Source: Ranitomeya imitator
Taxonomy: Eukaryota
NCBI RefSeq assembly: GCF_032444005.1
Contig: NC_091286.1
Span: 708,908,001 to 708,972,000, forward strand
DNA length: 64,000 nt
Direction: 5' to 3'
The notes beneath the pieces are model-generated. The model searched no databases. It was not told the origin of the DNA and was given only the letters and a program-made list of their open reading frames with translations. Shown here piece after piece: positions 6,421-61,530 of the stretch (position 1 is its first letter; each line of letters starts with the position of its first letter). Made by a program: the position numbers and the translations under genes.

Positions 6421-6942
6421 CTGTGAACACATCATTCTTAGGAAATAAATGTTTAGCAGGTAACACATGCACATTTTCATCAGCAGCATCATGTGTATTA
6501 CCCTCGGCATTTTCAGAGAAATGATTACCAGGTACATCATTAAGTGGTAAAATATTGTCAGGTAACACATGCAATTTCCCATTGCTATCATCAGCATTCG
6601 ATCAGGGAGGGGAGTCAGGGACATAGTATGCAACCATCCTCCCCAAATCAGTCCCCAATAAAACATTAGTGGGCAAGTTATTGGACAGCCACACTGTCAC
6701 GAATGCAGAACGCTGCCACCAATTATCACGATTCACACCGTGACCATCACCCCCATGTCACGGATCGAGGTGACTTTAGGCCAACAGACGGCTATCACAG
6801 GTGCAGGGGGGCTTATCTTCGTTATCCCTCCACTGCGACAATGTGATGGAAAAACACACACAAGGCTATTGACCTCTTAGTTTACAGCAGGGGCTTATTT
6901 TAATTATCCCACTGCTCTTCAATATACCACAAACTGCAGGGA

Positions 6943-8315
6943 TCTATAATATAACGCTGGGAGCGTCACTCTGTCCGAAGCCTTTATAGACTGCGCAGGC
7001 GCAAGCGCCGGCGCAGTCTGGCCCCCACAGAGTGACGCTCCCAGGAGATCGCGGTATGCGCAAACACTGAACGCATACCGCGATCTCCACCGGAGAGTCA
7101 GGGACCGCCAGGAGGGTAAGTATATTCACCTTTTCCCGTTCCAGCGCTGCGTGCGGCTCCGTCTCCCGGCTCCTCTGCTGTGACAGTTCAGAGGGCGCGA
7201 GACGCGCTTAATGCGCGCCGGCGCCGCCCTCTGACAACCAGTCACAGGCAGAGGAGCCGGAATGTGTCTTCAAGAAAGTGGCGCCGGAAAGCGCGGACTG
7301 CGCAGGCGCCGATTCCTGCTGCCGGAATCGGCGCCTGCGCAGTCCGCGCTTTCTGGCGCCATTTTCTTGAAGACACACCTGCAGTGGAGCCGGACGATAG
7401 GTGAGTATGGTTTTTTTTTTTATATGGCAGCAGCATACGGGGGCATAGACACTGGAGCGTCTTATGGGGGGCATATCATACAATGGTGGCGCAGGATGGG
7501 AGCAGCACATGACAGAACGGAGGCAGGATGGCAGCAGCACATGACAGAACGGGCGCAGGATGGCAGCAGCACATGACAGAACGGGCACAGGATGGCAGCA
7601 GCACATGACAGAACGGGCGCAGGATGGCAGCAGCACATGACAGAACGGGCGCAGGATGGGAGCAGCACATGACAGAACGGGCGCAGGATGGGAGCAGCAC
7701 ATGACAGGATGGGAGCAGCAAATGACAGAATGGAGGCGCAGGATGGGAGCAGCACATGACAGAACGGGGGCGCAGGATGGGAGCAGCACATGACAGAACG
7801 GGGGCGCAGGATGGGAGCAGCACATGACAGGATGGGAGCAGCAAATGACAGAATGGAGGCGCAGGATGGGAGCAGCACATGACAGAACGGAGGCGCAGGA
7901 TGGGATCAGCACATGACAGGATGGGGGTGCAGGATGGGAGCAGCACATGACAGAATGAGGATGCAGGATGGAGCAGCACATGACAGAATGGGGGCGCAGG
8001 ATGGAGCAGCACATGACAGAATGGGGGCGCAGGATGGAGCAGCACATGACAGGATGGGGACGCAGGATGGAGCATCACATGTCAGGATGGGGATGCAGGA
8101 TGGGAGCAGCACATGTCAGGATGGGGATGCAGGATGGAGCAGCACATGACAGGATGGGGGCGCAGGATGGGAGCAGCACATGACAGGATGGGGACGCAGG
8201 ATGGAGCAGCACATGACAGGATGGGGACGCAGGATGGAGCAGCACATACCAGGATGGAGACCATATAACAATATAAATGCTCGCCACCCGGGCGTAGAAC
8301 GGGTTCAATAGCTAG
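6943..8315 (+). mobile_element. Helitron-1, non-autonomous (1373 bp)
   Basis: Starts TC, ends CTAG after a cccg...cggg hairpin. Inserted at an A^T junction with no TSD; the host LTR reads gggA^TTTATG in uninterrupted copies. Confidence 0.88.
7493..8245. repeat. About 32-bp minisatellite inside Helitron-1 (gcaggatgggagcagcacatgacagaacgggc)
   Basis: Tandem copies with variants. Confidence 0.9.
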
Positions 8316-9513
8316 TTTATGTATATCACGCTTACAGTTCCACTTCAAACTTGCAGCTCTCTGGCACCCCCCCCCCTTAATCTCAGGTCAGACTAGGTAC
8401 TGCACCCTGGGGTAATAGTCGTCAGAAAGGCTGCCTGCTATGTACTGGCTATTGGGCACGCTGCAGCGAGGAGATATAAATAATCCCACTCAGGCAGGAA
8501 CAATAATTATCATCGCCGCAGTCGCTACAATGACTCCCAACTACCCAGTACAAAGGTCTGCTGCCACCAGCTTTGATTAAACGGGTCTGAAGCTAACCCA
8601 AAACAGTAGCGTAATTCCCTTCAGAAGACTTAGGGTACATTTTAGAACAGGAAGAACGAATCTAGTATTTTAAATATTTTACTCCATTAAAATTAGGCAG
8701 TGTTTAAGAAAAGGTATAAAAGACGTTAAAATATGAGACAATTGAGAATATGTACAAAGGTAATTATAAAAAAAAAACACACAGGGATTACATGAGAAAT
8801 CAACACGTACATGTGTTCAGAGCATTGCAGGCAGAACCAGGCTAGTTCCCATATGTCCCAATACATCAGGACTGGCAGTCAGGCTCCTCAGGTAAAACTA
8901 AACTGCTGGGGCCTGGCAGAAACTTGTAAACTGCAACCCGTGACATCACCAACAGGGCTGGTTTACCCGGACCCTCCTCTCTCTTCAGTCTTAGTAAATT
9001 TCACACAAGTTTGTCTAATGCCTGTATCTCCGCTCCAGAACATGTCAGAATCATAACACACCCAGCATTCATCTTGTATTAAGATTTGCCCTCTATAGAT
9101 ACTAAATTCAGGCTAGTAGGGACACTCAGTTCCAGAGAAATCCGTACTCTGTCCCTGTTGGACTTGGAGGCTCCTGCTTACAGTGGCAGACCGATCCGCC
9201 GATGGACGTTAGCAATATGTATTTGTTATTCTACTAGCCCAAGTCGGTGGCCCAGAATCTTATCATATTAGAACAAAGACCCTCATGGATTTTGGAGAAC
9301 TTTTATACCAGTCCTAGCTAGTACAGATGGGAGGGGGACGAGTAAGTTGCTCCTAACCTGGAATTTATGGCCAGGGCAATAAACCCTTTCTACACACACA
9401 CATCTCAGAAACACAGAGGGAAGGGAGGGTTTTTTTTTTTTTTTTTTAGCCCGCAGCATGGGTCTGACAGGCAAACTCCAAAATCATATTATATTTCATA
9501 CAATCTCGTGACA

Positions 9514-10956
9514 CCCACGTCCTTCACCCCGCTCCCGGAACCCCAATCTATATGCACCCGGGCCATTGGCAGGGGACAGCTGATGCCCCCAATCCCAGTG
9601 ACAGTTAGGGTTTTCCCCGGAATGATCTCTTCAGGGGCCGCCAGCTCTTGTCGGATGAGGGTTCGTTCAGCCCCGGTGTCCTTGAGGCCTGTAATGACAT
9701 GGCCCCCTATGGTGACGTGCTGAACGTTGTCTCACACCCTCCCAACCACCTCACCCACCATAAGAACTGCTGCATTAGGTCCTGGGGCTTTGGCTGGGGT
9801 GTTCTTCTGCTTCTCTGGACAGTAGGTGCTGATATGACCAGTCCGTTTGCAGAAATAACACTGGTGAAGGTCAGGGTAGGTCTGATGCAGTTGGCAACGG
9901 GGACAGGACCTCCGTTGTGTTGGCTGGCATTGGTTGCAGGCTTACCCCCTCTCAAGCTGGTGGTGACTGGCTTTCGCCCTTCCGATCTACGGTTGGCCTC
10001 ATAGGCATCGGCAATCTTCGCTGCTTTCGTCACGTCTTTGGGTTCTCTGTCCATCACGAACTGTCGCACCTCAGCTGAGCAAAGATGTAAGAACTGGTCT
10101 TTGATCATGAGGTCTCGCAGCTGTGCAAAGGTGGTCACTGACAGTCTTTGGGTCTACTGGTCAAAGTGGGTCCCGAGTCCATGCATCACATCACTGTAAC
10201 TGTCGTGTGGGCCATGTTGGAGGTTCCGGAACTTTCTACAGTACACCTCTGGTGTAAGCTGGTACTTGGCTATCAGGGCCTGCTTGATGGCCTCTTCATC
10301 TTGGTCTGGATGGAGAGCAGCAAACGCCTCCAGAGCTTTGCATTTTAGCCCTGGGGTCAGGTATCGGGCTCATTCGTTCCCAGGCAGCCGATACTGTCTG
10401 TAGGCTTTCTCAAATGCCCTCAAAAACGTGTCCAAGTCCCCATCCTTTTCCATCACAGGAAAGTGCTTTTGGCTGGGGTTTAGGGGTCTGAGCGCTGTTG
10501 GGCTCACCGCTGGACTGGGACGACCTCGGCCCCTGGAGTCGGGCTAACTCCAGCTGGTACTGCCGGTCCGCTTGCCGCTCGGCTCTCTCCACCTCCCGCT
10601 CAGCTCGGCTTGGGCCTCCTGCTGGTATTGCTGGATCAACCTCAGACGTTCATCACGGTTGTCAGCGGGGAGTTGTTCCAAGGCCGCCTGCAGGTGGGGG
10701 TCCAATCCACCCTGGTTGCAAGTAGGGCCAGCATTCAGTGGTTGGTCCTCTGCTGCAGCACCATTTACGCTTGTGCTGGCTTCTGCAGCCACTGGGCTCT
10801 GAGACCGGGCTTAGTCTGCTTCAAATTGTACCAGTTCCGTGACCTTGGTTTTGCCATGGGGGTGCAGGCCGTGGTACGTGCATACTCCAACAAGTGTCCC
10901 TCTTCTGCTGGGTGTACCAGGCTTCACCTTTTGTGGCCATCAGTGCCAAATAAAAA
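9514..10956 (-). pseudogene. Gypsy-A gag-protease remnant
   Basis: Frameshifted homologue of Gypsy-C gag-PR (QLRDLMIKDQFLHLC, LKDTGAERTL). Confidence 0.85.
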
Positions 10957-11741
10957 GTAACATAGTAACATAGTAAGGCCGAAAAAAGACATTTGTCCAT
11001 CCAGTTCAGCCTATATCTACTATATAAAGCTGAATGTGTGTGTGTGTATGTCCGGGATTGGCATCTGCACCGTGGCAGCTACAGCCACAAAATTTTGCAC
11101 AGTCACACGTCTGGACCCTGAGAGTGTCATAGGCTACGTTGTGAGGTGAAATTTTAACTCCGCGCTTTCCAATTCACCAAACAATTTTCCCCCTATCTAC
11201 ATAATGGGGAAAAGTGAAAGGAAAAGTGTTGGAGGCAAATTGACAGCTGCCAGATGTGAACAAGGGGGTGTGACAAAACACTCTGGGATCGCCTTTGCTG
11301 GGGTCAAAGGACACGTGGTTTGTGCATTGAATCTGAGGCGTACAGCAGGTTTCTGAGCAGGCTGACCTCAGGTCAGATTTATTAACGTGAAAGCAACACA
11401 AAAAACAAAACATAAAAATAAATCCTAGCCTGTCCGGCACTAACTAAACAAATACGTAGCTATCTCAACAACTGGGGGGCTTCTCCCACCCAGCTAACAT
11501 CACACAGATCTTGAGCAGAGCTCTTCACTCACGTTTGTCTCACACAGGCAGGCAATCTGTGTGCCCCAGGCAGACACTGGAAACACCCAGCTGGTCATCT
11601 TTTATTCCTGCAATCATTAACCCATTAGCACCCTGAAGATACTGAGTGGCCTAATTCACATAGGACAAACACCTGGGTGAGATATACCTGCCTCCATCTA
11701 CCACACCAGCATGAGTCTTGCATATCCCCCCCCCTTGCTCA

Positions 11742-12940
11742 GACCACTCCGGTCGAGCAAGAACACTTTTGAAACAGTGCACTCGGGATAGGGCATCGGC
11801 GTTCCCCATCTGCACCCCAGGTCGGTGCTCCACCGTAAAAGAGTAAGCCTGCAGGGCAAGGAACCACCTGGTTACCCGACTATTACGGTCCTTGTGGAGG
11901 TGCATCCACTTGAGAGGGGCATGGTCTGTGACCAGCCTAAACTTCCTACCAGCCAGGTAATACTTGAGGGAGTCGAGAGCCCATTTAATGGCTAGGCACT
12001 CTTTTTCAACCACGGCATACCTTTGCTCATGTACATTCAGTTTCCGACTGAGATAGAGGACCGGGTGTTCGACTCCGTCCCTCACCTGGGAAAGTACAGC
12101 TCCGACACCAGTATCAGAGGCATCAGTTTGTACCACAAACTCGCTGCTGAAATCAGGAGTCACTAGTACGGGCTGACAGCACAAAGCCCGTTTCAGGCTG
12201 TGGAAGGCCTCTTCAGCAGCTGAGGTCCATTTTACCATGACGGAACCCTTCCCCTTGGTAAGATCCGTCAAGGGAGTAGCCATGGCTGCAAAATTGGGTA
12301 TGAACCGGCGATAATAGCCGGCAATCCCCAGGAAAGCCTGCACTTGTTTCTTGTTCACTGGTTGTGGCCAGCCCTGAATTGCCTGTATTTTGTCGATCTG
12401 GGGTTTAACCACTCCTCGGCCAATCACGTAGCCCAAGTATCGGGCTTCTTCAAGCCCGATGTGGCATTTCTTGGGGTTTGCCGTTAAACCTGCATCTCGC
12501 AGGTCATCAATCACCGCTTGTACCTTCTGGAGATGAGTTTCCCAGTCCATGCTGTAAATTACGATGTCATCCAGGTAGGCAGAAGCGTACTGTCTGTGAG
12601 GCCTCAAGACTCGATCCATCAATCTCTGGAACGTTGCGGGAGCTCCGTGAAGTCCAAACGGCATATAGACATACTGGAACAGACCTTCCGGTGTAGCAAA
12701 TGCCGTCTTCTCTCTGGCCGCCTCGGCCAGAGGAATCTGCCAGTACCCCTTTGTTAAATCCAGGGTCGTAATGTATCGGGCTTTACCAAGCCGGTCGATC
12801 AACTCATCGACCCGGGGCATAGGGTACGCATCAAATTTAGAAACTGCATTCAGTTTCCTAAAGTCATTACAAAACCGGATGGAGCCATCCGGTTTAGGTA
12901 TCAACACAATTGGACTGGACCAGGCGCTGTGACTCCTCAA
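11742..12940 (-). CDS. Gypsy-B reverse transcriptase and RNase H
   Basis: WSSPIVLIPKPDG, DLTKGYWQ, MPFGLHGAPATFQR, YLDD, VQTDASDTGVGAVL, EKECLAI, NADALSR. Confidence 0.92.
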
Positions 12941-13745
12941 TGACTCCTAAGTCCAACATTGCCATCACTTCCCGGGAGACGGCTTCACGGCGGGCTTCCG
13001 GAATCCGGTAGGGCTTCACATGAACAGTGACGCCAGGCTCTGTGACAATCTCATGTTTCACCAACTTCGTCCGGCCAGGTTTTTCGGAGAAAAACTGTCG
13101 GTTCTGTAACAAAAATTGCTTAACCTCAGATTTTTGTCGTTCTGAGAGAGTCTCAGCAACCTGCACCTCTGGTACAGTAGGTGAACAAACCGGACGGGGC
13201 AGATCCGCCGTTAGGGCAGAGCGGTCTTTCCAGGATTTTATCAGATTCACATGATAAATCTGTTCAGGTTTTCTCTTACCCGGCTGGTACACTTTATAGT
13301 TCACTTCACCAACTCTTTCTCGGACCTCAAATGGGCCCTGCCATTTCGCCAGGAATTTATTATCCACCGTAGGGATTAGGACCAACACCCTATCGCCGGG
13401 TGCAAATGTACGGACCTTAGCGCCTATATCATAACTTTGCCTCTGGGCTCCCTGGGCCTGTAACATATGGTCCCTAACAATGGGCATGACAGCGGCAATA
13501 CGATCCTGCATTTGTGTTACATGGTCGATCACCGTTTTAAAGGGAGTGACTTGACCTTCCCAGGTTTCTTTTGCGACGTCCAGCAGTCCCCGGGGACGAC
13601 GGGCGTACAACAGTTCGAAAGGCGAAAATCCTGTGGAAGACTGGGGAACTTCCCTAATGGCAAATAGGGTAACAAGTAATCCCAGTTCTTCCCATCTTTG
13701 TCTATCGCCTTCCGGAGCATCTGTTTTAAGGTTTTGTTGAAGCGC

Positions 13746-16010
13746 TCAACCAGGCCATCTGTTTGAGGGTGATAGACAGACGTACGCAACGGGTCTATTT
13801 GTAAGAGCCTGCAGAGCTCCTTCATTACCCTCGACATAAAGGGAGTCCCCCTGGTCGGTGAGTATCTGTTTTGGAATTCCCACCCGACTAAACACTTGTA
13901 CCAATTCCTTGGCGATCGTCTTGGTAGCTGTGTTACGCAAAGGGACGGCTTCCGGGTAACGAGTGGCATAGTCCACGATGACGAGGATATGTTGGTGCCC
14001 ACGTGCGGATCGGGGAAGGGGCCCAACCAAATCCATCCCAATTCTCTCAAAAGGGACCCAGATGATAGGAAGGGGTACCAAAGGGCTACGGAACTGAGAT
14101 TTAGGGGCCGCGATTTGGCACTCTGGACAGGACTCACAATAGTTACGCACATCACAATGTATTCCAGGCCACACAAAACAATGCAATATCCTTTCTGTGG
14201 TTTTCTGTACCCACAGATGTCCCCCCATTATATGTCCGTGGGCCAAATCCAGTACCTTCCGCCGATAAGGTTTGGGTACCACTAACCGTTGCACTGTGTC
14301 TTCCCCTTTTTTTTCTACCTGGTAGAGCAAATCATTTTCAAGAACCATATACGGGTACGCTAGCCTAGTGTCAGGTTCTACGGGTACCCCATCTATCATT
14401 TTTACATTTTTCCTAGCCGGAGTCAGGGTAGGATCTTTCATTTGCTCGCTGTGGAAGTCATCCACCTGGACTCCCAAATCTGGCAGGCAGGGTGCCGGAT
14501 GGCTGTCTGCCTCCGCCTCTCGCTGAGGTTCCTCAGTTTCCTCTGTTTCCCCCGCCATGACGGAGAAGGGGTACTGAAGGTTAGATTCACTAACCTCCCC
14601 AGCAACATCTTCCTGTGGGGTCTCCTCTAGGGACTCTGGACCTCCAGATGGCATGGGAGAAGATTCACGGGTACAGCTACCGTGAAGGAGTAACTGATTC
14701 TCCCACAACTGCCAGAAATAGGGAAAATCCCTGCCCAGGATTACATCATGTAACAATGCGGGAATGAGTCCCACTTTGTGCTGCACTGACCCATATGGAG
14801 TAGAAATCCATATGACCGCTGTTAAGTACGAGCGGGTGTCACCATGCACACACGTCACAGAAAACTTGTCAGACGGACCAGACGGAAGTGCCACCAGACT
14901 AGCTTTCACCAGAGTCACCACACTTCCAGAGTCTAGTAATGCCACAACATTTTTCCCATCAACAGATAATTCACACAGGTGTTTCACTGTATCATTTTGA
15001 CCCGCATTCACACTCACTAGCTGTGTAACCAAAGACATGCGTTTTCTAGAGTCTATAACGTCGCACTGCATGGGTTCAGCGGTAACAGGACAGTTCGCAG
15101 AAACATGACCCTTCTCATGGCATCGGAAACACCTAACAGGTCCCCTACTGAGACCACCGTCCAATACTCTTGGTCTCAGAGTGCGAGCAGTCCCGGACTC
15201 CTCCCCCACAGTTTTAAGCGATTTTCCTTCACCCGTGGTCCCTGGAACAGTCTTACCGGTTCCACGAGGAGGAGGCACAGTCCGGGGTTTGGCGGTGTCG
15301 TCGGGAAGTCCTTCTGCCACGGAATAACGCTCGACCAACTCCACAAGTTGATCCGCTGTCGTGGGATTTCCTTGGCTTACCCACCTTTTCAGCGCTGGGG
15401 GTAGTACTCTCAGGTACTTGTCCAGGACAACCCGCTGGATTATTTCGGGTATTGTCAGTACCTCGGGTTGCAGCCATTTCTTTGTCAAGTAGATCAGGTC
15501 GAACATCTGAGACCGCGCTGGTTTATCTTGCTGGTATGTCCACTGATGTACCCTCTGTGCACGGACAGCCGTCGTCACACCCAGCCGGGCCAGGATCTCA
15601 GCTTTCAGCTTCTCAAAGTCCTGAGCGACCTCCGGGTCCAAATCATGGTAAGCTTTTTGGGCCTCGCCGGAGAGAAACGGGGCAATCAAATCGGCCCATC
15701 GTGCCTTCGGCCACTTCTCTCTCAATGCCGTCCGCTCAAACGTTGTCAGATATGCCTCGACGTCATCTTCTGCAGTCAGCTTTTGCCAGTATCGACTCAC
15801 ATGGATCCTTCTGGACTCTGCTTCCGGGTCAGCATCAGGCATGCTCACCAGGCGCTGCGCCACCTGTTGGAGAAGTTGGCGGTCTGCAACCGTCATGTCC
15901 AGTAACTCCTTCAGCTGTGTGGCCATCAAGCGATTAGCTTCGTGCTGTGCGGCAGTGGCCTGCTGCTGTACGGCAGTGGACTGTACTAAGGCTTTCACCA
16001 CGTCTTCCAT
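13746..16010 (-). CDS. Gypsy-B gag-PR-integrase ORF (probable start MEDVVK at 16010; frameshifted near 13850)
   Basis: SCAN-like KKWLQPEVLTIPEIIQRVVLDKYLRVLP, CCHC CFRCHEKGHVSANC, protease LLDSGS, integrase H..H..C..C and DLVGPL...TDQG. Confidence 0.88.
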   Translation of the reverse strand: MEDVVKALVQSTAVQQQATAAQHEANRLMATQLKELLDMTVADRQLLQQVAQRLVSMPDADPEAESRRIHVSRYWQKLTAEDDVEAYLTTFERTALREKWPKARWADLIAPFLSGEAQKAYHDLDPEVAQDFEKLKAEILARLGVTTAVRAQRVHQWTYQQDKPARSQMFDLIYLTKKWLQPEVLTIPEIIQRVVLDKYLRVLPPALKRWVSQGNPTTADQLVELVERYSVAEGLPDDTAKPRTVPPPRGTGKTVPGTTGEGKSLKTVGEESGTARTLRPRVLDGGLSRGPVRCFRCHEKGHVSANCPVTAEPMQCDVIDSRKRMSLVTQLVSVNAGQNDTVKHLCELSVDGKNVVALLDSGSVVTLVKASLVALPSGPSDKFSVTCVHGDTRSYLTAVIWISTPYGSVQHKVGLIPALLHDVILGRDFPYFWQLWENQLLLHGSCTRESSPMPSGGPESLEETPQEDVAGEVSESNLQYPFSVMAGETEETEEPQREAEADSHPAPCLPDLGVQVDDFHSEQMKDPTLTPARKNVKMIDGVPVEPDTRLAYPYMVLENDLLYQVEKKGEDTVQRLVVPKPYRRKVLDLAHGHIMGGHLWVQKTTERILHCFVWPGIHCDVRNYCESCPECQIAAPKSQFRSPLVPLPIIWVPFERIGMDLVGPLPRSARGHQHILVIVDYATRYPEAVPLRNTATKTIAKELVQVFSRVGIPKQILTDQGDSLYVEGNEGALQALTNRPVAYVCLSPSNRWPG

Positions 16011-16030
16011 GCTGTCGCCTGTGCCACGGT

Positions 16031-16049
16031 ATGCCCGCGTTCTCCACCA
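16031..16049 (-). promoter_or_regulatory. Primer-binding site, tRNA-Ala type
   Basis: + strand atgcccgcgttctccacca matches the vertebrate tRNA-Ala 3' end as I recall it (ATGCCCGCATTCTCCACCA) at 18/19; 3 nt from the 5' LTR. Confidence 0.85.
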
Positions 16050-17391
16050 CAATGTGACAAAACACTCTGGGATCGCCTTTGCTGGGGTCAAAGGCCACAT
16101 GGTTTGTGCATTGAATCTGAGGCGTACAGCAGGTTTCTGAGCAGGCTGACCTCAGGTCAGATTTATTAACGTGAAAGCAACACAAAAAACAAAACATAAA
16201 AATAAATCCTAGCCTGTCCGGCACTAACTAAACAAATACGTAGCTATCTCAACAACTGGGGGGCTTCTCCCACCCAGCTAACATCATACAGATCTTGAGC
16301 AGAGCTCTTCACTCACGTTTGTCTCACACAGGCAGGCAATCTGTGTGCCCCAGGCAGAGACTGGAAACACCCAGCTGGTCATCTTTTATTCCTGCAATCA
16401 TTAACCCATTAGCACCCTGAAGATACTGAGTGGCCTAATTCACATAGGACAAACACCTGGGCGAGATATACCTGCCTCCATCTACCACACCAGCATGAGT
16501 CTTACAGGGGACTTAAAGAATGAGAGCGATGGCGCCAAAGAGTATATACCGATCAGTTGCTAAGGTGGGGCCCCGACATGAGATACTCACCACACATGGG
16601 GATATGAACACACACACAAAATGCGCCACACACTACCACGTGCTTGAACACATATTACCCTCAGCACACATTTCACCACACATACACCAACCTCGCCACA
16701 TAAAAGTCGAAACACAAAAGTCGCCGCTCAAAACTCACCACGCGCAAAACTCGCCACATGCAAAAACTAGGCTCACGCAAAACTCGCCACAAGTGCAAAA
16801 CTCACCTCATGGAAAACTCGCCACACGCAAAACTTGCACACGCGGAAAAATTGCCACATGCACAAAATTTGCAACACATGCAAAAGTTGCCTCACACAAA
16901 ACTTGCACATACTCAAATGGCACCAGACATAAAACTCACCACGCGCAAAACTCGCCATGCACAAAACTTGCTGCACACAACTTGCTACACTAACCTGTCA
17001 CATGCAACTCAACACACAAAAGTTGCTACACGCATGTTGCCACACAAAACTCATCTCACAAAAGTCGCTACATGCATGTTGCCACACACAACTCAACACA
17101 CACAACTTGACAGACGAAACTCGCCCTAAAACACACACAAGTCTGGTATTAGCCTTCAAAAATAAAAATCTGATTAATAAGCAGACAAACTACAAGAGCA
17201 ACAAATGTACCATATAGGAAATACAGCAGCTGTCAGTCACATGACCTGTCTATTATGTGTATGTGTGAGCTAATATATATACTGCCAGGGGGAGGGCTTC
17301 CTGTTGGCTGAGGATTTATCAGGCTGCCAATTTATCTTACAAATACTGAGGTAAAAATACTGAGCAAATAACGTGTTAACGAGGTCTAATA

Positions 17392-18760: not shown

Positions 18761-18778
18761 ATCCCACTGCTGCCACCA
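18761..18778 (-). promoter_or_regulatory. Primer-binding site, tRNA-Leu type (Gypsy-A)
   Basis: atcccactgctgccacca versus tRNA-Leu(AAG/TAG) 3' end ATCCCACCGCTGCCACCA (17/18, from recall); 3 nt from TGTCAC. Confidence 0.82.
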
Positions 18779-20350
18779 ATATGTCACAGTTCACATGGAG
18801 AATACCTTTATCATCCCCACCACTCACACCAATTTGTCATGAACCGGGGTGTTTGGTTGCCCCTGGTTCTTTCTGAAGGTGAATTTATCTATATCCCACT
18901 TTCCAGTTCCGGTTTGGAACTTGCAGCTCTCTGGCGCCCCCTGTCACGATTCACACCGTGACCGTCACCCCTATGTCACGAATCGGGGTGACTTTAGGCC
19001 AACAGACGGCTATCACATGTGCAGGGGGGCTTATCTTAGTTATCCCTCCACTCCACAATGTGATGGAAAAACACACACAAGGCTATTGACCTCTTAGTAT
19101 ACAGCAGGGGCTTATTCTAGGTATCCCACTGCTCTTCAATATATCACAAACTGCAGGGATTTATGTATATCCCGCTTACAGTTCCACTTAAAACTTGCAG
19201 CTCTCTGGCGCCCCCCTTATTCTCAGGTCAGATTAGGTACTGCACCTGGGGTAATTAGTCGCCAGAAAGGCTGCCTGCTATGTACTGGCTATTGGGCACG
19301 CTGCAGCGACGCGATAAACTACTCCCGCTCAGGCAGGAACAATTATCAACGTAGCAGTCGCTACAACAACACCCAACTACCCAGTACAAAACGTATGCTG
19401 TCACCAGCTTCGATTAAACGGGTCCGAAGCGAACCCAAAACAGTAGCGTAATTCCCTTCAGGAGACTTAGGGTACGTTTAGAGCTTGGAGAAAGAACTAG
19501 TATTATATAATATACCCCACAAAATTTAGGCAGTGCTTTATCAAAATATTTTACAAAGATGTTACAAATGAGACAATTGCAAATATGTACAAGGTAATTA
19601 TAACATAAAGGGATTACAGGAGAAAGGATAACACTCACATGTTTTCAAAGCATTGCAGGCAACCAGGCTAGTGGAGTTTCCATACGTCCCAGCTCATTGG
19701 ACGTGCTCAGGGCTCTCCAGGAAAAAGACAAGAAGAAACTGCTGGGATCTGGGCAGACAGTTATAGCTCCAGCCTGTGACATCCCAGAAAGGGGTTGGAT
19801 CACTTCGTCCCTCCTACCTCTTCAGTTAACTAATTTTACCCTAACTTTTATCTAATTTCTATAACTCCGCTACAAAACATGTCATAGTCATAACAAACCC
19901 AGCATTCATCTCGGATTAACGTGGGCATTCTAATGAGATCAAATATGTCCTTTCTGTGATACATATTTACAGAGAAATCTCTACTTCTTTACCAGATGGA
20001 GTTAGAAGCCCGTGTTTAGAGTGATGGGTAGATCCACCGAGGGAGATTAAGAATATATATTTTCGTGTTCTTATCTTAAATGGTTTGCCTAATATCTTAC
20101 AAAAACAGAACAAAGAACTTTCATGGATTCTGGAAATTTCTAATCCAGTCATAGCTGGAAAAGAGTTGGAGCCTTCCAAAGCGATCGTAAATTCCTTTCT
20201 TCAATAAAACTCCCCCCAGTACATTGGCACGGCAGCTCTTGGCTGAGTGAAATGGGAAGGGGGGCTTTTTAGCCCACAGCCTGCTAGCAAGAGAAACTAC
20301 TTATATGATATTTCATACCATATCGTGACACCTCCCCCTTTTGGTGTGCG

Positions 20351-21775
20351 CTAGGGAGGTAGAACCCCACGGTATGCCTCCATGAGCACCTCAGTAGGTT
20401 CACCCTGGCGGGACAGCCCATCTGCATTCCCATGCTCCCTGCCCGTTTTGTGTTCAATGGTGAAGTCAAACTGCTGAAGGGCAAGGCTCCAGCGTAGCAA
20501 CCTGCCGTTGGTTCCACACATGGTGTTTAGCCAGTGCAGAGGGTCGTGGTCGGTCACCACAGTGAAGGTGCGACCGTACAAGTAGGGCTGCAAGCGCTGC
20601 AGGGCCCAGACTATGGCCAGGCACTCCTTCTCGATGGTGGAGTAGGCCACTTCCCTCGGCAAAAGTTTCCAGCTCAGGTATAACATGGGGTGCTCTTGGT
20701 CCTCTGAGTCAACCTGGCTGAGCACAGCACCAAGGCCAAACTCGCTGGCGTCAGTCTGCACCAAGAACGGTCGACTGCTGTCGACTGCTTTCAACACAGG
20801 GGCGTTGCACAGTGCGGTTTTCAACGCCTGGAAGGCCCCCTCACAGCCATCTGTCCAGTTGACAATGTGGGGTAGCTTCTTCCTGGTGAGGTCCGTCAAG
20901 GGTTTTGCCAGGCTACTATAGTGCGGTACGAAGCGCCTATAGTACCCTGCAGTGCCCAGGAAGGACATCACCTGTTTCTTGGTCACGGGAGTGGGCCTGT
21001 TCACGATCACTCCCACTTTGTCAGGCTCTGGCTTTAGGGTGTTTCCGCCTACCCGGTTCCCCAGGTAGTGGACCTCCCTCATGCCCATCTGGCACTTTCC
21101 CGGCTTGATAGTCAGTCCTGCTTGGTGAAGTCGCCTGAGCACCTCCTCGAGATGCTGCAGGTGTTCCTCCCAGGAGGAACTGAAGATGGCAATGTTATCC
21201 AAGTATGCCACGGAGTACTTCTCCAGTCCCTGAAGCAGGAGGTTGACCATCCGCTGGAAAGTGGCAGGGGCATTCTTCATGCCGAAGGGCATGACCGTGG
21301 ACTTGTACAGTCCGAAGGGCGTGATAAAGGCGGACTTCTCCTGCGCCTCGGGGCTCAGGGGAATCTGCCAGTATCCTCTACTCAGATCCATTATTGTTAG
21401 GTAATCTGCCCCAGCTAACCTATCAAGCAGCTCCTGGATGCGCGGCATTGGGTGCGTGTCAGAGGCTGTGATGGCATCGAGCCCCCTGTAGTCCATGCAG
21501 AACCGGGTGGTCCGGTCTTTCTTTGGCACGAGAACTACAGGTGAGGCCTACGCGCTCTTTGACCGTCGAATCACCCCCAGCTGTAACATCTCATTGATCT
21601 CTTGGCGCATAATCTGCTGCACCTGGTCAGAGATTCGATAGGGTGTTCGCCGTAGTGGGGCGTGATTCCCGGTGTCCACCTCGTGGACTGCTAACTCAGT
21701 CCTCCTAGGTCGGTTGGAGAACATGACCTGGAAGGGTTCCAGTGTGGTTTGCAACCGGTAGGACGAAAGGTTCAC
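20351..21775 (-). pseudogene. Gypsy-C RT-RNase H (disrupted at its N-terminus)
   Basis: DLSRGYWQ, MPFGMKNAPATFQR, YLDN (YxDD altered), QTDASEFGLGAVL, EKECLAI, NADGLSR. Confidence 0.9.
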
Positions 21776-21793
21776 GTTCGTGATGAGCCTTCA

Positions 21794-23323
21794 TCATGTT
21801 GACGTGAAAGGCCTTTCGCCTACCCCGAGCGTGGTCAAGCGTGACCACGTAGGTGACCGGGTTGAGCTGTTCGTGGACGACGTAGGGCCCTCCCAGGCTG
21901 CCTGAAGCTTATCCTTTGGTACGGGGACCAGCACCCACACCTTTTGACCCACGTGGTAGGTCCGCTCCCGGGTATTCTGGTCGTACCAGTGCTTCTGGTC
22001 AGCCTGAGCCTGCGTTGTGTTGTCATGCACCAACTGCGTCAAGGTCTGCATCTTGTCACGGAAGCACATGACATACTCCACTATGGACACTTCAGAAGGG
22101 TTCGGCTCCTCTTCCCAGGATTCTCTTACCAACCCAAGGGGTCCCCGGACTCGCCTACCGTACAGGAGCTCGAAGGGGGAGAACCCCGTCGAGGCCTGCG
22201 GAACCTCTCGGTAAGCGAACAGCAGGTGTGGGAGGTACCGCTCCCAGTCGCGCCCTTGTGTATCAACCAGCATGCGTAGCATATGTTTGAGGGTACCATT
22301 GAAGCGTTCACACAAGCCATTGGTCTGTGGGTGATACGCAGTCGATACCAGGTGCTTCACTTGCATTCTCTTAAAGAGAGCCTCCATTAGGCTAGACATA
22401 AATTGGGTCCCTTGATCAGTAAGTATTTCCCTGGGAAATCCTACATGTGAAAAGATGGCCAACAAGGCATCCGCCACCTTATCTGCCCTAGTTGACGACA
22501 GAGCTACTACCTCTAGGTACCAGTTAGCGTAGTCTACCACAGTAAGGATGTATTGCTTTCCAGAGCTGCTGGAGACGGCCAGCGGGCCCATAATGTCCAC
22601 CGCGATTTTCTGGAAAGGCTCCTCTATCACTGGCAAAGGGATCAGGGGAGCCTTAAGAGCAGGCCCCGCCTTCCCCACTCTTTGACAAGTGATACAGGAG
22701 CGGCAGTAGTTTGACACATCTGTCCCCATCTCAGGCCAATAGATGTGTTGAGACAGCCAGGCCTTAGTTTTGCTGATCCCCAAGTGTCCAGCTAGCGGGA
22801 TCTCATGGGCAATACGCAACAACTCACCCCGGAATTGCTGCGGGACGACCAGCTGTCTTTCCCTCAACCACTCCTGTTGTGGTTTTCCGGGTACTGTCTC
22901 CCGGTATAACCTTCCTCGTTCCCAGAACACCCTCTCCTTATCAGTCACGGAGGTGGGTGTCTCGGCGAGTTGTCTCAAACTCTCTAGGCTCGCATCTGCA
23001 CGCAGAGCGGCCTGAAACTCCTGGCTAGGGGAAGCCAGAAGCGATGTCAGGGTCCCTTCCCCACAGGAACCCTCTTGGACCTGTTCTGGGTCCACCTCTG
23101 GTTCAGTCACAGTGATGACTGAGGAGGGTCCGGAAGGCAGACAGTTATCTGCGTTCCGGGCACTCTGACTGCGGGTGACAGCAGCTACGTAGGCTGTCTC
23201 CCCGGGGGTTTCTACAGACCCATCAGCCGGCGCTGCTATGGGCTCTACCTCCCCATCCACCCCCAACACTCCAGGGGCAGTGCTACTTATGGGCCAGTTA
23301 CCTTCCTCGGTGGCACTGGTCAC
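21794..23323 (-). CDS. Gypsy-C integrase (same frame as gag-PR, after a TAA stop)
   Basis: HEIPLAGHLG...CRSCITC, AVDIMGPL, TDQG, TNGLCERFN; frameshift near the C-terminus. Confidence 0.88.
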   Translation of the reverse strand: MTSATEEGNWPISSTAPGVLGVDGEVEPIAAPADGSVETPGETAYVAAVTRSQSARNADNCLPSGPSSVITVTEPEVDPEQVQEGSCGEGTLTSLLASPSQEFQAALRADASLESLRQLAETPTSVTDKERVFWERGRLYRETVPGKPQQEWLRERQLVVPQQFRGELLRIAHEIPLAGHLGISKTKAWLSQHIYWPEMGTDVSNYCRSCITCQRVGKAGPALKAPLIPLPVIEEPFQKIAVDIMGPLAVSSSSGKQYILTVVDYANWYLEVVALSSTRADKVADALLAIFSHVGFPREILTDQGTQFMSSLMEALFKRMQVKHLVSTAYHPQTNGLCERFNGTLKHMLRMLVDTQGRDWERYLPHLLFAYREVPQASTGFSPFELLYGRRVRGPLGLVRESWEEEPNPSEVSIVEYVMCFRDKMQTLTQLVHDNTTQAQADQKHWYDQNTRERTYHVGQKVWVLVPVPKDKLQAAWEGPTSSTNSSTRSPTWSRLTTLGVGERPFTST

Positions 23324-25201
23324 TTACATGGCATCACCTTCCTCACGGTTCCCATGCATCTCCCCATTTCCTGTAGCACCGACACTTGCCCCTGTTAGGG
23401 GTTCCTCAGCCGTCTCACTCCGCAGAGCGACGTGGCTGAGCACGCCTGTACCTATGGACACATTAACCTTCACAGAAAAATCATTATCAGGTTCAGTTGG
23501 CACAGGTACAACATTTTCACCATCAATCCTAGGGAAAAAATGGTTATTAGATGCATCATTACAAGATAAAGCATGATCAGGTAACACATGCGATTTCCCA
23601 TCATCATCATCATCAGGGTTAACGTTACCCTTATTAGCAGATTGGGGAGGGGTGTCAGGGACGTAGTATGCAACCATCCTCCCCAAATCAGTCCTCAACA
23701 AAACTTCAGTGGGCAAATTATCAGACAGCCCCACTTCCTTCACCCCGCTCCTGACTCCCCAATCAAGATTAACCCGGGCCATCGGTAAGGGACAGCTGAT
23801 GCCCCCAATCCCCATGACAGTTAGGGTTTTCCCCGGAATGATTTCTTCAGGGGCCGCCAGTTCGGGTCGGATGAGGGTTCGTTGAGCCCCGGTGTCCTTG
23901 AGGCCTGTAGCAACATGGCCTCCCACAGTGACGTGCTGTACGTTGTCACACACCCTCCCAACCACACCACCCACCAAAAGAACTGCCGCATTAGGCCCTG
24001 GGGCCTTGGATGAGGGGTTCTTCTGCTTGTCTGGACAGTTGGGACTGATATGACCCGGCCGCTTGCAGAAGTAACACTTGCGGGGTTCGGTGGTAGGCCT
24101 GGGGTTGTTGGCCACGGGGACAGGACCTCTGGTGTGCTGGCTGGCAGGGGTACTGGCGTTGGTTGCAGGCTTACCCCCTCTCCAGCTGGTGGTGACTGGC
24201 TTCCGCACTTCCGATCTACGGTTGGCCTCATAGGTATCGGCAATCTGTGCTGCTTTCGTCACGTCTTTGGGTTCTCTGTCCATCATGAACTGTCGCACCT
24301 CAGCTGGGCAAAGATGAAAGAACTGGTCTTTGATCATCAGGTCTCGCAGCTGTGCAAAGGTGGTCACTGACAGTCCTTGGGTCCACTGGTCAAAGTGGGT
24401 CCCCAGTCCATGCACCACATCACTGTAACTGTCGTGTGGGCCACATTGGAGGGTCCGGAACTTTCTACGGTACACCTCGCGTGTAAGCTGGTACTTGGCT
24501 ATCAGGGCCTGCTTGATGGCCTCATAGTCTCCATCTTGTTCTTGAGGGAGGGCAGCAAACGCCTCCAGAGCTTTGCCTCTCAGCCCTGGTGTCAGGTATC
24601 GTGCCCATTCATCTGTAGGCAGCCGGTACTGTCTGCAGGCTTTCTCAAAGGCCCGCAGAAAAGTGTCCAAGTCCCCGTCCTTCTCCATAACAGGAAAGTG
24701 ATCGGGCTGGTGCTTCAGTATCTGAGCGCTGCTGGGCTCACGGCTCTGGACGGGGGAGGGCATCCCCCCCTGCCGGAGCATCTCCAGTTCATGTGCTCGC
24801 TGGGCTTGGCGCTCGGCTCTCTCAGCCTCCCGATCGGCTCGGGCCTCTCGCTCGGCTCGCTCCTGGTATTGCTGGATCAGCTGCAGACGTCTCTCTAGAT
24901 CATCTGCGGAGCCTTGATGCAGAGCCAGCTGCAGGAGGAGGTCTGCGCCCCTCTGGTTGCCAGTAGGGCCCGTATTCAGTGGTTGGACCTCTGCTGCAGC
25001 ACCATGTTCGCTTGTGCTGGCTTCTGCGGCCTCTGAGCTCTGTGGCCTGGCTTGGTCTGCTTCAAATTGCACCAGTTCAGCGACCATTTGAGTCTTGGTC
25101 TTACCCTGGGGGTTCAGGCCATGGCACGTGCATATCCCAGCAAGAAAGTCCTTCTTCTGCTGGGTGTACCAGGCTTCCCCTTTCGCAGCCATGGTTGCCA
25201 A
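23324..25201 (-). CDS. Gypsy-C gag-protease ORF (625 aa)
   Basis: Capsid DGDLDTFLRAFEK, SCAN-like region, CCHC CYFCKRPGHISPNC, protease LKDTGAQRTL. Confidence 0.88.
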   Translation of the reverse strand: MATMAAKGEAWYTQQKKDFLAGICTCHGLNPQGKTKTQMVAELVQFEADQARPQSSEAAEASTSEHGAAAEVQPLNTGPTGNQRGADLLLQLALHQGSADDLERRLQLIQQYQERAEREARADREAERAERQAQRAHELEMLRQGGMPSPVQSREPSSAQILKHQPDHFPVMEKDGDLDTFLRAFEKACRQYRLPTDEWARYLTPGLRGKALEAFAALPQEQDGDYEAIKQALIAKYQLTREVYRRKFRTLQCGPHDSYSDVVHGLGTHFDQWTQGLSVTTFAQLRDLMIKDQFFHLCPAEVRQFMMDREPKDVTKAAQIADTYEANRRSEVRKPVTTSWRGGKPATNASTPASQHTRGPVPVANNPRPTTEPRKCYFCKRPGHISPNCPDKQKNPSSKAPGPNAAVLLVGGVVGRVCDNVQHVTVGGHVATGLKDTGAQRTLIRPELAAPEEIIPGKTLTVMGIGGISCPLPMARVNLDWGVRSGVKEVGLSDNLPTEVLLRTDLGRMVAYYVPDTPPQSANKGNVNPDDDDDGKSHVLPDHALSCNDASNNHFFPRIDGENVVPVPTEPDNDFSVKVNVSIGTGVLSHVALRSETAEEPLTGASVGATGNGEMHGNREEGDAM

Positions 25202-28186
25202 ATAAAAGAGGATAGAAAAACGAAGAGAAAGGGAGGGGATAATTACCAGTACACAATTGTCTCAAGACTAATAAACACTGTTCGTTCTCCAAACTTATTT
25301 GCGCAGAGTCCTCGCAAGAACTTTCTGCAAGTTTTTAGTGAGGGGAATGATTGCTCAAACCAAATCGCTAATTCTCTAATATCCCATCCCCTTGCCACCA
25401 ATTTGTCACGATTCACACCGTGACCGTCACCCCTACGTCACGGATCGGGGTGACTTTGGGCCAACAGACGGCTATCACATGTGCAGGGGGGCTTATCTTA
25501 GTTATCCCTCCACTCCACAATGTGATGAAAAAACACACACACGGCTATTGACCTCTTAGTTTACAGCAGGGGCTTATTCTAGGTATCCCACTGCTCTTCA
25601 ATATACCACAAACTGCAGGGATTTATGTATATCCCGCTTACAGTTCCACTTAAAACTTGCAGCTCTCTGGCGCCCCCCTTATTCTCAGGTCAGATTAGGT
25701 ACTGCACCTGGGGTAATTAGTCGCCAGAAAGGCTGCCTGCTATGTACTGGCTATTGGGCACGCTGCAGCGACGCGATAAACTACTCCCGCTCAGGCAGGA
25801 ACAATTATCAACGCCGCAGTCGCTACAACAACACCCAACTACCCAGTACAAAACGTATGCTGCCACCAGCTTCGATTAAACGGGTCCGAAGCTAACCCAA
25901 AACAGTAGCGTAATTCCCTTCAGGAGACTTAGGGTACGTTTAGAGCTTGGAGAAAGAACTAGTATTATATAATATACCCCACAAAATTTAGGCAGTGCTT
26001 TATCAAAATATTTTACAAAGATGTTACAAATGAGACAATTGCAAATATGTACAAGGTAATTATAACATAAAGGGATTACAGGAGAAAAGATAACACTCAC
26101 ATGTTCAAAGCATTGTAGGCAACCAGGCTAGTGGAGTTTCCATACGTCCCAGTGCATTGGACGTGCTCAGGGCTCTCCAGGAAAAAGACAAGAAGAAACT
26201 GCTGGGATCTGGGCAGACAGTTATAGCTCCAGCCTGTGACATCCCAGAAAGGGGTTGGATCACCTCGTCCCTCCTACCCTCTTCAGTTAACTAATTTTAC
26301 CCTAACTTTTATCTAATTTCTATAACTCCGCTACAAAACATGTCATAGTCATAACAAACCCAGCATTCATCTCGGATTAACGTGGGCATTCTAATGAGAT
26401 CAAATATGTCCTATCTGTGATACATATTTACAGAGAAATCCCTACTTCTTTACCAGATGGAGTTAGAAGCCCGTGTTTAGAGTGATGGGTAGATCCACCG
26501 AGGGAGATTAAGAATATATATTTTCGTGTTCTTAACGTAAACGGTTTGCCTAATATCTTACAAAAACAGAACAAAGAACTTTCATGGATTCTGGAAATTT
26601 CTAATCCAATCATAGCTGGAGAAGAGTTGGAGCCTTCCAAAGCGATCGTAAATTCCTTTCTTCAATAAAACTCTCCCCTGTACATTGGCAAGGCAGCTCT
26701 TGGCTGAGTGAAAGGGAAGGGGGGCTTTTTAGCCCACAGCCTGCTAGCAAGAGAAACTACTTATGATATTTCATACCATATTGTGACACCCCCCTTACCC
26801 TCAGATCAGACCGGGTACTACACCTAGGATAATTAGTCGCCAGAAAGGCTTCCCAACTACTGGCTAATGGGCACGCTGCAGCGAGGGCGATATAACTACT
26901 CCCACTCAGGCGGGAACAATATCAATGCCGCCAGTCGCTGCAACTACTCCCAAACGCTCAGGACAAATCCGCTGCCACCAGCTCCGATTTCTTAATTATT
27001 AATGGGATCAGAGCCCACGCAGATTAGTAGCGTGATTCACTTCAAAAAAACGTGACCGTACATTATAGAGCAAGGAGAGACAAGTGAGTAATTTTATATT
27101 TTACTTCAAAAAAGGTAGGCAGTGTTTACAGAGGTATGAAAAGATGTTATAAAGAAGACACGTATCGTATGTACAGTACAGTTACAAATAAAATGGGATT
27201 AAAGTTGAAAAGAGCACTTTCATTTTGTTATGTCATCTTATCTCATGGCTGTCCGTGTGCTGTGGAGGAGGGGACACATCTAGATGCATACCACACATCT
27301 GTATAGCAGCTAGACCCCAGACAAAAGACACATGAAGACTGCTGCTTCACTCACTTATTTTCCAGCTTAAAACCAAGGCACTCCCCCTGTGGTGACCTCA
27401 CTTAGAGGCCGAATCCTCCCATTTTCTTAGAGTTAAAGCATTTTTATGCCTAGCTCGCTGTACAAACCTTGTATATGAAAGACACAATGATCAGGAGGTG
27501 CACCACGTCGCGGCGATTCTTTTAAGTGTAAACAGCGCAGTTACACGACCCGCTTACGGAGAAACCCACTCTTTGCACTCATTGGGTTTAGCTTCTAGCG
27601 ATTTCAGGGAGTTATAGATTCCTCGATGGACATCCGGAATATATAATCCTTATATCTGTAGCCCTGATCGTTGCCAATATATGTATAACCTTAGAAGAAC
27701 AATAGAAACTCAAGCTTTCTATACCAGTTTTTGCCAGTATTAGATGGGAGGGGCGGAATGAGGAGTGTAGGGAGACCTCCTTGTAGCTTAAAGCCATAAA
27801 ATTTCTTGAGGAGGGGAAGTGTATAGGATTACACACACAGGGAGAAGGAGTGGCGTAGAATTCCAGCCTTGTGTTGGCAGGCAGAGAAAACTGCAGCTGA
27901 TGGCTCTGTATGTGTAAGTGAAGTAATGAGAACTTTTCTATTACCTGACAGTCAGGCTTCCAGTCGGCTAGCCACTTTCATATTTTGAGGCTCCTGGTCC
28001 ATACATCTCCTGAATACCAGGTATATTTGCCCCCCACGTATATCGGATACATCTTCCTGTCAACCCGTATGCTGGATACCTCTGCCCCCCATACTATGTC
28101 CATCCGCTTTCGTCCACAGCGGGGTGACGAGTCGCATTCTCTTCTCACTTTCTCCTCCTGAGATCTCGCTCTCCCATTACTGCTAG

Positions 28187-61530
<33,344 letters not shown>

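Follow-up and report, generated by a model that had tools for sequence, protein, structure and literature searches.

The ends of long terminal repeats (LTRs) are treated as fixed since integrase needs them, and changes in LTR length are poorly explained. The U5-IR stem of retroviruses has a role in initiation and integration, and Voronin and Pathak (2004) reportedly observed dual initiation in engineered vectors carrying two primer binding sites (PBSs). This stem is described as a hairpin at the U5 end beside the PBS (PMC3601003). For Ty1 and Ty3 it is reported that the first plus-strand strong-stop DNA is tRNA-tailed and a dead end, transfer taking place by R-U5 homology so that the primer is not inherited (PMC5371799). 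In HIV-1, aberrant plus-strand transfer leaves a copy of the tRNA at the junction of the misplaced jump (PMC12657518), and the natural, fixed partial PBS duplication of the MAL type, 23 nt in length, occurs in 14% of isolates (PMC3185550). Among gypsy elements, rGmr1 has the integrase-first gene order (PMC3601003), and Gmr1-like copies have been reported in frogs (PMC4131045).

The window discussed here is the whole stretch of 64,000 nucleotides that was analysed, positions 708908001-708972000 within a genome of 5.96 Gb. It contains a solo LTR of a Gmr1-like gypsy element which reads on the minus strand, and position 6695 is therefore its U5 (3′) end. The features of this LTR are as follows:

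6695..9513, minus strand: solo LTR, Gmr1-like gypsy, with the U5 end at 6695 and the U3 start at 9513
6690..6694: left copy of the target site duplication (TSD), CACAC (original target CCCAC), from flank and host copy
9514..9518: right copy of the TSD, CCCAC, from flank and host copy
6695..6723, minus strand: captured unit of type 1, aged, with the new U5 att at 6695-6700, a tRNA-Leu 3′ copy at 6700-6721, and a spacer
6711..6721, minus strand: 11-nt perfect inner PBS match, CGCTGCCACCA, to the tRNA-Leu 3′ end plus CCA
6724..6755, minus strand: C-type terminal 32 nt with the previous att; an older unit, since remodelled, with a hairpin fold
6756..6761, minus strand: still older att, TGTCAC, with only the type-4 unit outside it in the "old" subfamily
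6824..6846, minus strand: decayed tRNA-copy/att junction ending internal module 1; the equivalent site is a junction in L219 (p 0.02-0.06 per site, related LTRs)
6906..6929, minus strand: decayed tRNA-copy/att junction ending internal module 2; the equivalent site is a junction in L208
6943..8315, plus strand: insertion that entered the LTR later, ends TC...CTAG, located between A and T, no TSD

The LTR was inserted into the gag-pol region of an older gypsy copy, the split halves of which align to 23421-23735 and 23730-25207. Both termini are present, the far one being GTGACA at 9508-9513, with no internal region between them and a 5-bp TSD on either side. CCCAC occurs once in the related uninterrupted host copy, at approximately 23730, and CACAC/CCCAC is thus the true TSD, altered by one later substitution. 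The initial annotation had described TGTCAC at 6695-6700, CGCTGCCACCA at 6711-6721 and a C-type end behind them, and the sequence reads in this way. It had also held that the extension was part of the integrated DNA, which the position of the TSD outside the unit confirms; a TSD at 6725, where the preceding 5 bp are CAATT, is ruled out. The extension had been put at 30 nt. It exists, but in this copy it measures 29 nt, the previous (inner) att being TATCAC at 6724-6729, and in relatives it measures 30-32 nt.

The 11-mer is identical to the 3′ end of the tRNA-Leu(AAG/TAG) genes of this genome with CCA added, which agrees with the tRNA-Leu type first assigned to it. The tRNA-Leu 3′-end pattern has 20 genome matches, tRNA-Leu was called at four of six loci, and the match of the unit extends to 18 of 21 tRNA positions. 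The proposal that this LTR equals the C-type LTR plus an extension holds for the U5 220 nt, which are 93% alike, but not for the remainder, which is 76% alike to C and nearest (89-92%) to the LTRs bearing type-1 units; the copy at 6695 is accordingly an aged type-1 copy. The type-1 LTRs (L077/L298, L305 and 6695-9513) form a mosaic, having the U5 220 nt in common and several different U3 regions and U3 ends. The 1.4-kb insert at 6943-8315 has an internal minisatellite and a short subterminal inverted repeat and, judged by end rules, is presumably a Helitron-like non-autonomous element.

The C element, with which the solo LTR was compared, and two further extended LTRs are located elsewhere in the window:

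18942..20330, minus strand: 3′ LTR of the C element, without extra unit; polypurine tract (PPT) at 20331-20342
20354..25174, minus strand: coding region of the C element, gag (SCAN, CCHC), integrase, then RT-RNase H
25381..25400, minus strand: outer (genomic) PBS of the C element, with the 2-nt insertion of the family
25404..26789, minus strand: 5′ LTR of the C element, without extra unit, 2.0% from its own 3′ LTR
40396..40447, minus strand: 52-nt re-copied end plus 18-nt tRNA copy (40427-40444) in a sister B-type LTR
58756..60189, minus strand: second solo LTR with an extension, of type 3, in which the inner att and PBS are mutated; flanked beyond the unit by TSD CCGTC on either side

The integrase domain (rve, 21797-23323, minus strand) is upstream of RVT_1/RNase H (20354-21547, minus strand), which is the gene order of Gmr1-like elements, and the gag product has a SCAN domain (PF02023, E=2.4e-10), which we take to be a further link to that group. 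Domain order and SCAN together suggest that the C family is a Gmr1-like (Osvaldo clade) member of Ty3/gypsy. The C element was inserted at a C-run within the 5′ LTR of a B-type element (18761-18941 and 26790 onward), and members of the family are often found in one another's LTRs (also L102, L084/L085 and L096). Tandem elements with a common LTR, having the PBS on one side and the PPT on the other, are present at L132-L134, L155-L156 and L302. Window positions 11269-16506 hold a different young gypsy element with 454-bp LTRs that are 98.7% identical.

Exact pattern searches of the genome, in which zero mismatch was allowed so that all counts are lower bounds, gave at least 44 matches for unit type 1, at least 760 for type 2, at least 1,862 for type 3 and at least 61 for type 4, together with at least 27 for units identical to the tRNA (hereafter "fresh" units). 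The bare or inner core end was matched at least 1,147 times and the leader beside the PBS at least 1,567 times. Backwards patterns gave 0 matches in all of these searches, and five solo LTRs (L072, L073, L079, L082 and L092) have perfect TSDs outside the same unit; the unit is therefore not a chance resemblance. An assembly artefact or one-off accident is ruled out by the thousands of copies with unique flanks, and a nested second element beside the PBS by inspection, no element body lying between the PBS copy and the new att.

As an unselected sample we used the first 100 leader sites listed (L097-L196), all on contig C1. Their 5′ LTRs, by classification and inspection (which reassigned L151 and L167), comprised 62 of type 3, 20 of type 2, one of type 1 and 17 without a unit. 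Among the 42 elements of this sample for which both U5 ends and a TSD were resolved, 41 have the unit on both LTRs, the TSD outside and a separate outer PBS, the sole exception being L194 with a 19-nt non-unit addition on its 5′ LTR. The type-1 element L003/L019 likewise has the unit on both LTRs, within the TSD CTGAG, and a separate outer PBS. The unit has thus been integrated as part of the element DNA and is inherited on both LTRs, which is what the initial annotation had asked of full-length copies.

The outer PBS of the family has a CT insertion of 2 nt relative to tRNA-Leu in 89 of the 100 leader loci (L097-L196) and is tRNA-exact in eight. A unit containing the CT-form PBS has 0 matches genome-wide, from which it follows that new units were copied from the tRNA and not from the chromosomal PBS. 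The expression "old PBS", used at the outset, is in this respect incorrect, since what the unit contains was copied from the tRNA primer. Those 61 units that have a 2-nt insertion belong to a single GC-type form (type 4) or its decay variants, and since the GC insertion is shared by a few outer PBSs (L038, L127), some units are not pure tRNA copies. Unit types 1, 2 and 4 also carry insertions of 1-2 nt, and imperfect PBSs seem to be favoured, conceivably, as a guess, as an escape from silencing by tRNA fragments or zinc-finger proteins.

These data bear on whether the unit could have been made in the chromosome, where slippage or unequal exchange would have duplicated in tandem the sequence spanning the 5′ LTR/PBS junction before normal retrotransposition from the outer PBS spread it. 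Formally the unit is a tandem duplication with junction microhomology, settled units form arrays of two or three (L028, L056, L196), and L303 and L178 show contraction of the 5′ LTR by microhomology. Such an origin would, however, have placed the CT insertion in approximately 89% of the units, which the absence of any genome match contradicts for new units. Furthermore, the CT-form PBS lies directly beside an exact-tRNA unit in L202, L206, L217 and L219, and L206, L217 and L219 lack the new att, TGTCAG, at the end of their own 3′ LTR. We consider this origin of the unit improbable, while the expansion of existing arrays, such as the settled-unit arrays 22, 222 and 11, could be due to slippage.

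Fresh units are found on C-core, type-1, type-2 and B-type ends, and in mixed arrays they are always outermost. They lie on 5′ LTRs at 14 of 27 sites, compared with 5 of 30 unselected ends (p=0.01). Both ends could be resolved in just 10 elements around these 27 sites; the added sequence is longer on the 5′ than on the 3′ LTR in six, all with matching TSDs (L220, L212, L202, L217, L206 and L219), equal in four, and longer on the 3′ LTR in none (sign test p=0.03). The frequency of discordance, 6/10 versus 1/42 in the unselected elements, differs at p=7e-5 (Fisher). The outermost position and 5′ bias of exact-tRNA units point to a mis-transfer of plus-strand DNA. At L178 the unit is on the 3′ side only, in a pair with an unresolved TSD and 5.5% divergence, and at L210 the 5′ U5 end is seemingly deleted. 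No LTR partner was found within 8-20 kb for L197, L200, L201, L203, L205, L207, L209, L211, L213, L214, L222, L302, L304 and L306; L011/L299 (13.9% divergence, no TSD) and L103 (11-12%) were not accepted as partners.

Another possibility is that integrase accepted an untrimmed right end, with the primer unremoved and the PBS attached, and that the extra att arose afterwards. Untrimmed ends bearing the PBS are known from retroviral circle junctions. Extensions of this kind should be on the 3′ LTR only and would not be heritable as U5 comes from the 5′ LTR, whereas the observed asymmetry is 5′-only (6:0) and every unit ends in a complete att; we regard this explanation as very improbable indeed.

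In L219 and L208 exactly 18 nt of tRNA are fused at an internal ATCCC site, and approximately 100 and 200 nt of the LTR's end, respectively, have been copied again. A tRNA copy of 18 nt corresponds to the usual stop at m1A58 (PMC12657518). In L219 the fused tRNA join is followed by a CT-form PBS, and the extension is absent from the 3′ LTR. The B-type LTR at window positions 40396-40500 has a duplicated 52-nt end module, joined through a copy matching 17 of 18 tRNA-Leu positions, in the same geometry as L208 and L219.

The inner PBS had been called a fossil, which is not so for type 1. There the inner site consists of the last 21 nt of the tRNA and one extra base, and its predicted 18-nt duplex with the tRNA has an energy of -35.5 kcal/mol; the outer PBS and the type-2 site both reach -33.9, the type-3 site -25.9 and that of the copy at 6695 -23.0. 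Nine type-1-like 5′ ends were found, of which L011 was excluded and three were unresolvable. The unit is on both LTRs in L003 and L307 (TSD of the latter not seen), and on the 5′ LTR only in L077 (TSD GACTG) and L305 (TSD AGCAG); L303 is unit-free. Two of the four resolved type-1 elements thus lack the unit on the 3′ LTR, as expected from priming at the inner site. An extension on one LTR only had been named as what would refute the initial reading; 41 of 42 elements have the unit on both LTRs, and these two type-1 elements have it on the 5′ LTR alone. Duplex energy and the 5′-only elements indirectly indicate that the type-1 inner PBS is still able to prime. The type-3 inner PBS is probably inactive, to judge from its weaker duplex, its burial in a stem and the absence of any TSD-verified 5′-only element of type 3. 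On this indirect evidence the inner PBS would be dead solely in type 3, the youngest subfamily, and in the 6695 copy it would have decayed after insertion.

A longer 5′ LTR also follows from inner priming in a unit-bearing parent, and most discordant elements consequently do not separate gain from partial loss. Clear gain is limited to L219 and the solo LTR L208. Discordance as such indicates that a tRNA copy annealed at an inner site; the net outcome may be either gain or loss.

The C-type end, which had been taken as a baseline, is not one. At 7 of 30 inspected type-4 loci the type-4 unit abuts the att found 32 nt inward from the C end, and in an alignment with the terminal 32 nt of C this unit shows seven differences; hence the C end is an older capture. 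Further inside the LTR, two internal modules of approximately 85 nt show homology to each other (score 40, against a maximum of 34 in 1000 shuffles); a decayed junction ends each of them, and a third module is weak and not significant versus module 1. The deep internal fossils are individually weak (p 0.02-0.47). In the B-type LTRs a fossil is clear at 52 nt inward from the end (score 36, higher than any of 300 shuffles), and there are additional nested units. A tRNA-Leu-like 10-11-mer, TGCTGCCACCA, is located deep in the C LTR at position ~456 (window 25859-25868) and is kept in C, type-3, old and B LTRs; alone it is not significant (p 0.06-0.8).

A tree of LTR bodies (77 rows, with 28 low-coverage rows and 6 ambiguous loci dropped and bootstraps unconverged), rooted with six old-type LTRs as outgroup, gave a grade of no-unit and type-1 LTRs, then type 2, then a type-3 clade (96/97). 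The median LTR-pair divergence is 0.46% for type 3 (n=37) and 1.4% for type 2 (n=5); L003/L019 is at 2.6% and the C element of the window at 2.0%. The fold of the terminal 55 nt, assessed in 11 natural copies with 200 shuffles each, gave z values of -3.8 and -4.2 for core ends, -2.4 for type 2 and -3.6 and -3.5 for type 3, and values from -0.9 to +1.6 for the old and type-1 ends, the 6695 copy and a fresh unit. Settled ends are predicted to form a terminal stem, which fresh, type-1 and old ends lack. By inspection, five of the seven changes from old to core create stem pairs, and in type 3 the inner att has become GGTCAG, which pairs with the unit, the old CA end being gone. Selection may lie behind this remodelling of the hairpin.

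It could be argued that only one or two ancient captures took place, and that present variation reflects priming at the inner PBS with tRNA-templated repair and recombination between co-packaged RNAs, with no ongoing gain. Fresh TGTCAG units on bare cores and some unit-free copies do fall within the type-2 grade of the tree, as inner priming would give; the type-1 elements L077 and L305 carry a settled unit on the 5′ LTR only; and type 4 is present on two LTR lineages. Against this, the outgroup polarity demands at least two successive captures in the C lineage, and repeated gain is needed both for the three-unit array of L222, in which the two exact-tRNA units are outermost, and for the private long extensions (L208, L219 and window 40396) and nested older B-type units. 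This makes a history without ongoing gain unlikely, though less so than either of the two alternatives above.

We therefore favour, as the likely source of the added end (the tRNA-Leu 3′ copy and re-copied att), tRNA-tailed plus-strand strong-stop DNA which re-annealed to a PBS-like site in U5 rather than to the true PBS. Plus-strand synthesis would copy U5, the spacer and 18 nt of the primer. The 3′ end of this plus strand would then pair through microhomology (GGGAT/GAT) with an older unit or with the end of U5, the minus strand being an extended or a second one, so that the att end and PBS are re-copied and the 5′ LTR alone is lengthened. Transcripts primed at the outer PBS would place the unit on both LTRs, integrase using the new att, while priming at the inner site would drop it from the 3′ LTR, leaving early units in a balance of gain and loss. 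The copy at 6695 would be an aged product of this stage. Finally, lineages in which the former att and PBS mutate so as to form a terminal U5 hairpin would lock the unit in and amplify, as in type 3.

The evidence is about evenly balanced on a broader proposal, that four or more successive captures of the tRNA primer and re-copied end, in modules of 30, 52 and ~85 nt, produced the outer 200-260 nt of U5. Each time, selection would destroy the old att and the old PBS would fold into a new terminal hairpin, the bulged PBS making the mis-jump frequent. If this is true, LTR boundaries and integrase att sites are renewable parts, and chromosomal copies record rare intermediates of reverse transcription stage by stage. 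Within one genome the family displays every stage of one route by which LTRs change length: first products with the unit on the 5′ LTR only, intermediates with two PBSs, reversion, fixation accompanied by compensatory changes in the hairpin, and buried older rounds. It is a natural setting in which to test models of plus-strand transfer for a gypsy element of vertebrate type, and it offers an example of dual priming in nature. It is also a warning to annotators, as an LTR may extend beyond the first PBS that follows TG...CA.

The literature searched, the coverage of which was partial, with subscription journals mostly outside it, yielded no description of primer capture moving the LTR end outward heritably and repeatedly. 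Each step has a precedent in HIV or Ty1/Ty3, and heritable, repeated LTR growth appears to be the new part. With Gmr1-like elements the family has in common the integrase upstream of RT-RNase H, SCAN in gag, TG...CA ends, the 5-bp TSD and the PPT; it differs in its growing, PBS-containing LTR ends, which the available portions of the sources do not describe for that group. The aberrant HIV-1 jump is downstream and yields defective deletions, whereas here it returns to U5 and the product is a longer LTR, viable and heritable. The MAL duplication is downstream of the PBS and outside the LTR, moved no att and happened once, unlike the frog unit. Compared with the U5-IR of retroviruses, the stem is here rebuilt from the captured primer copy after each extension. 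The persistence of a bulged PBS in 89 of 100 loci, with eight tRNA-exact, would fit transfer of the Ty1/Ty3 type, in which a tRNA copy is seldom inherited, although selection for the bulge could give the same pattern. With Ty1/Ty3 as a guide, the U5 acceptor would come from an extended minus strand (PMC5371799); the difference is that the tRNA-tailed strand, a dead end there, is here apparently sometimes rescued into the LTR.
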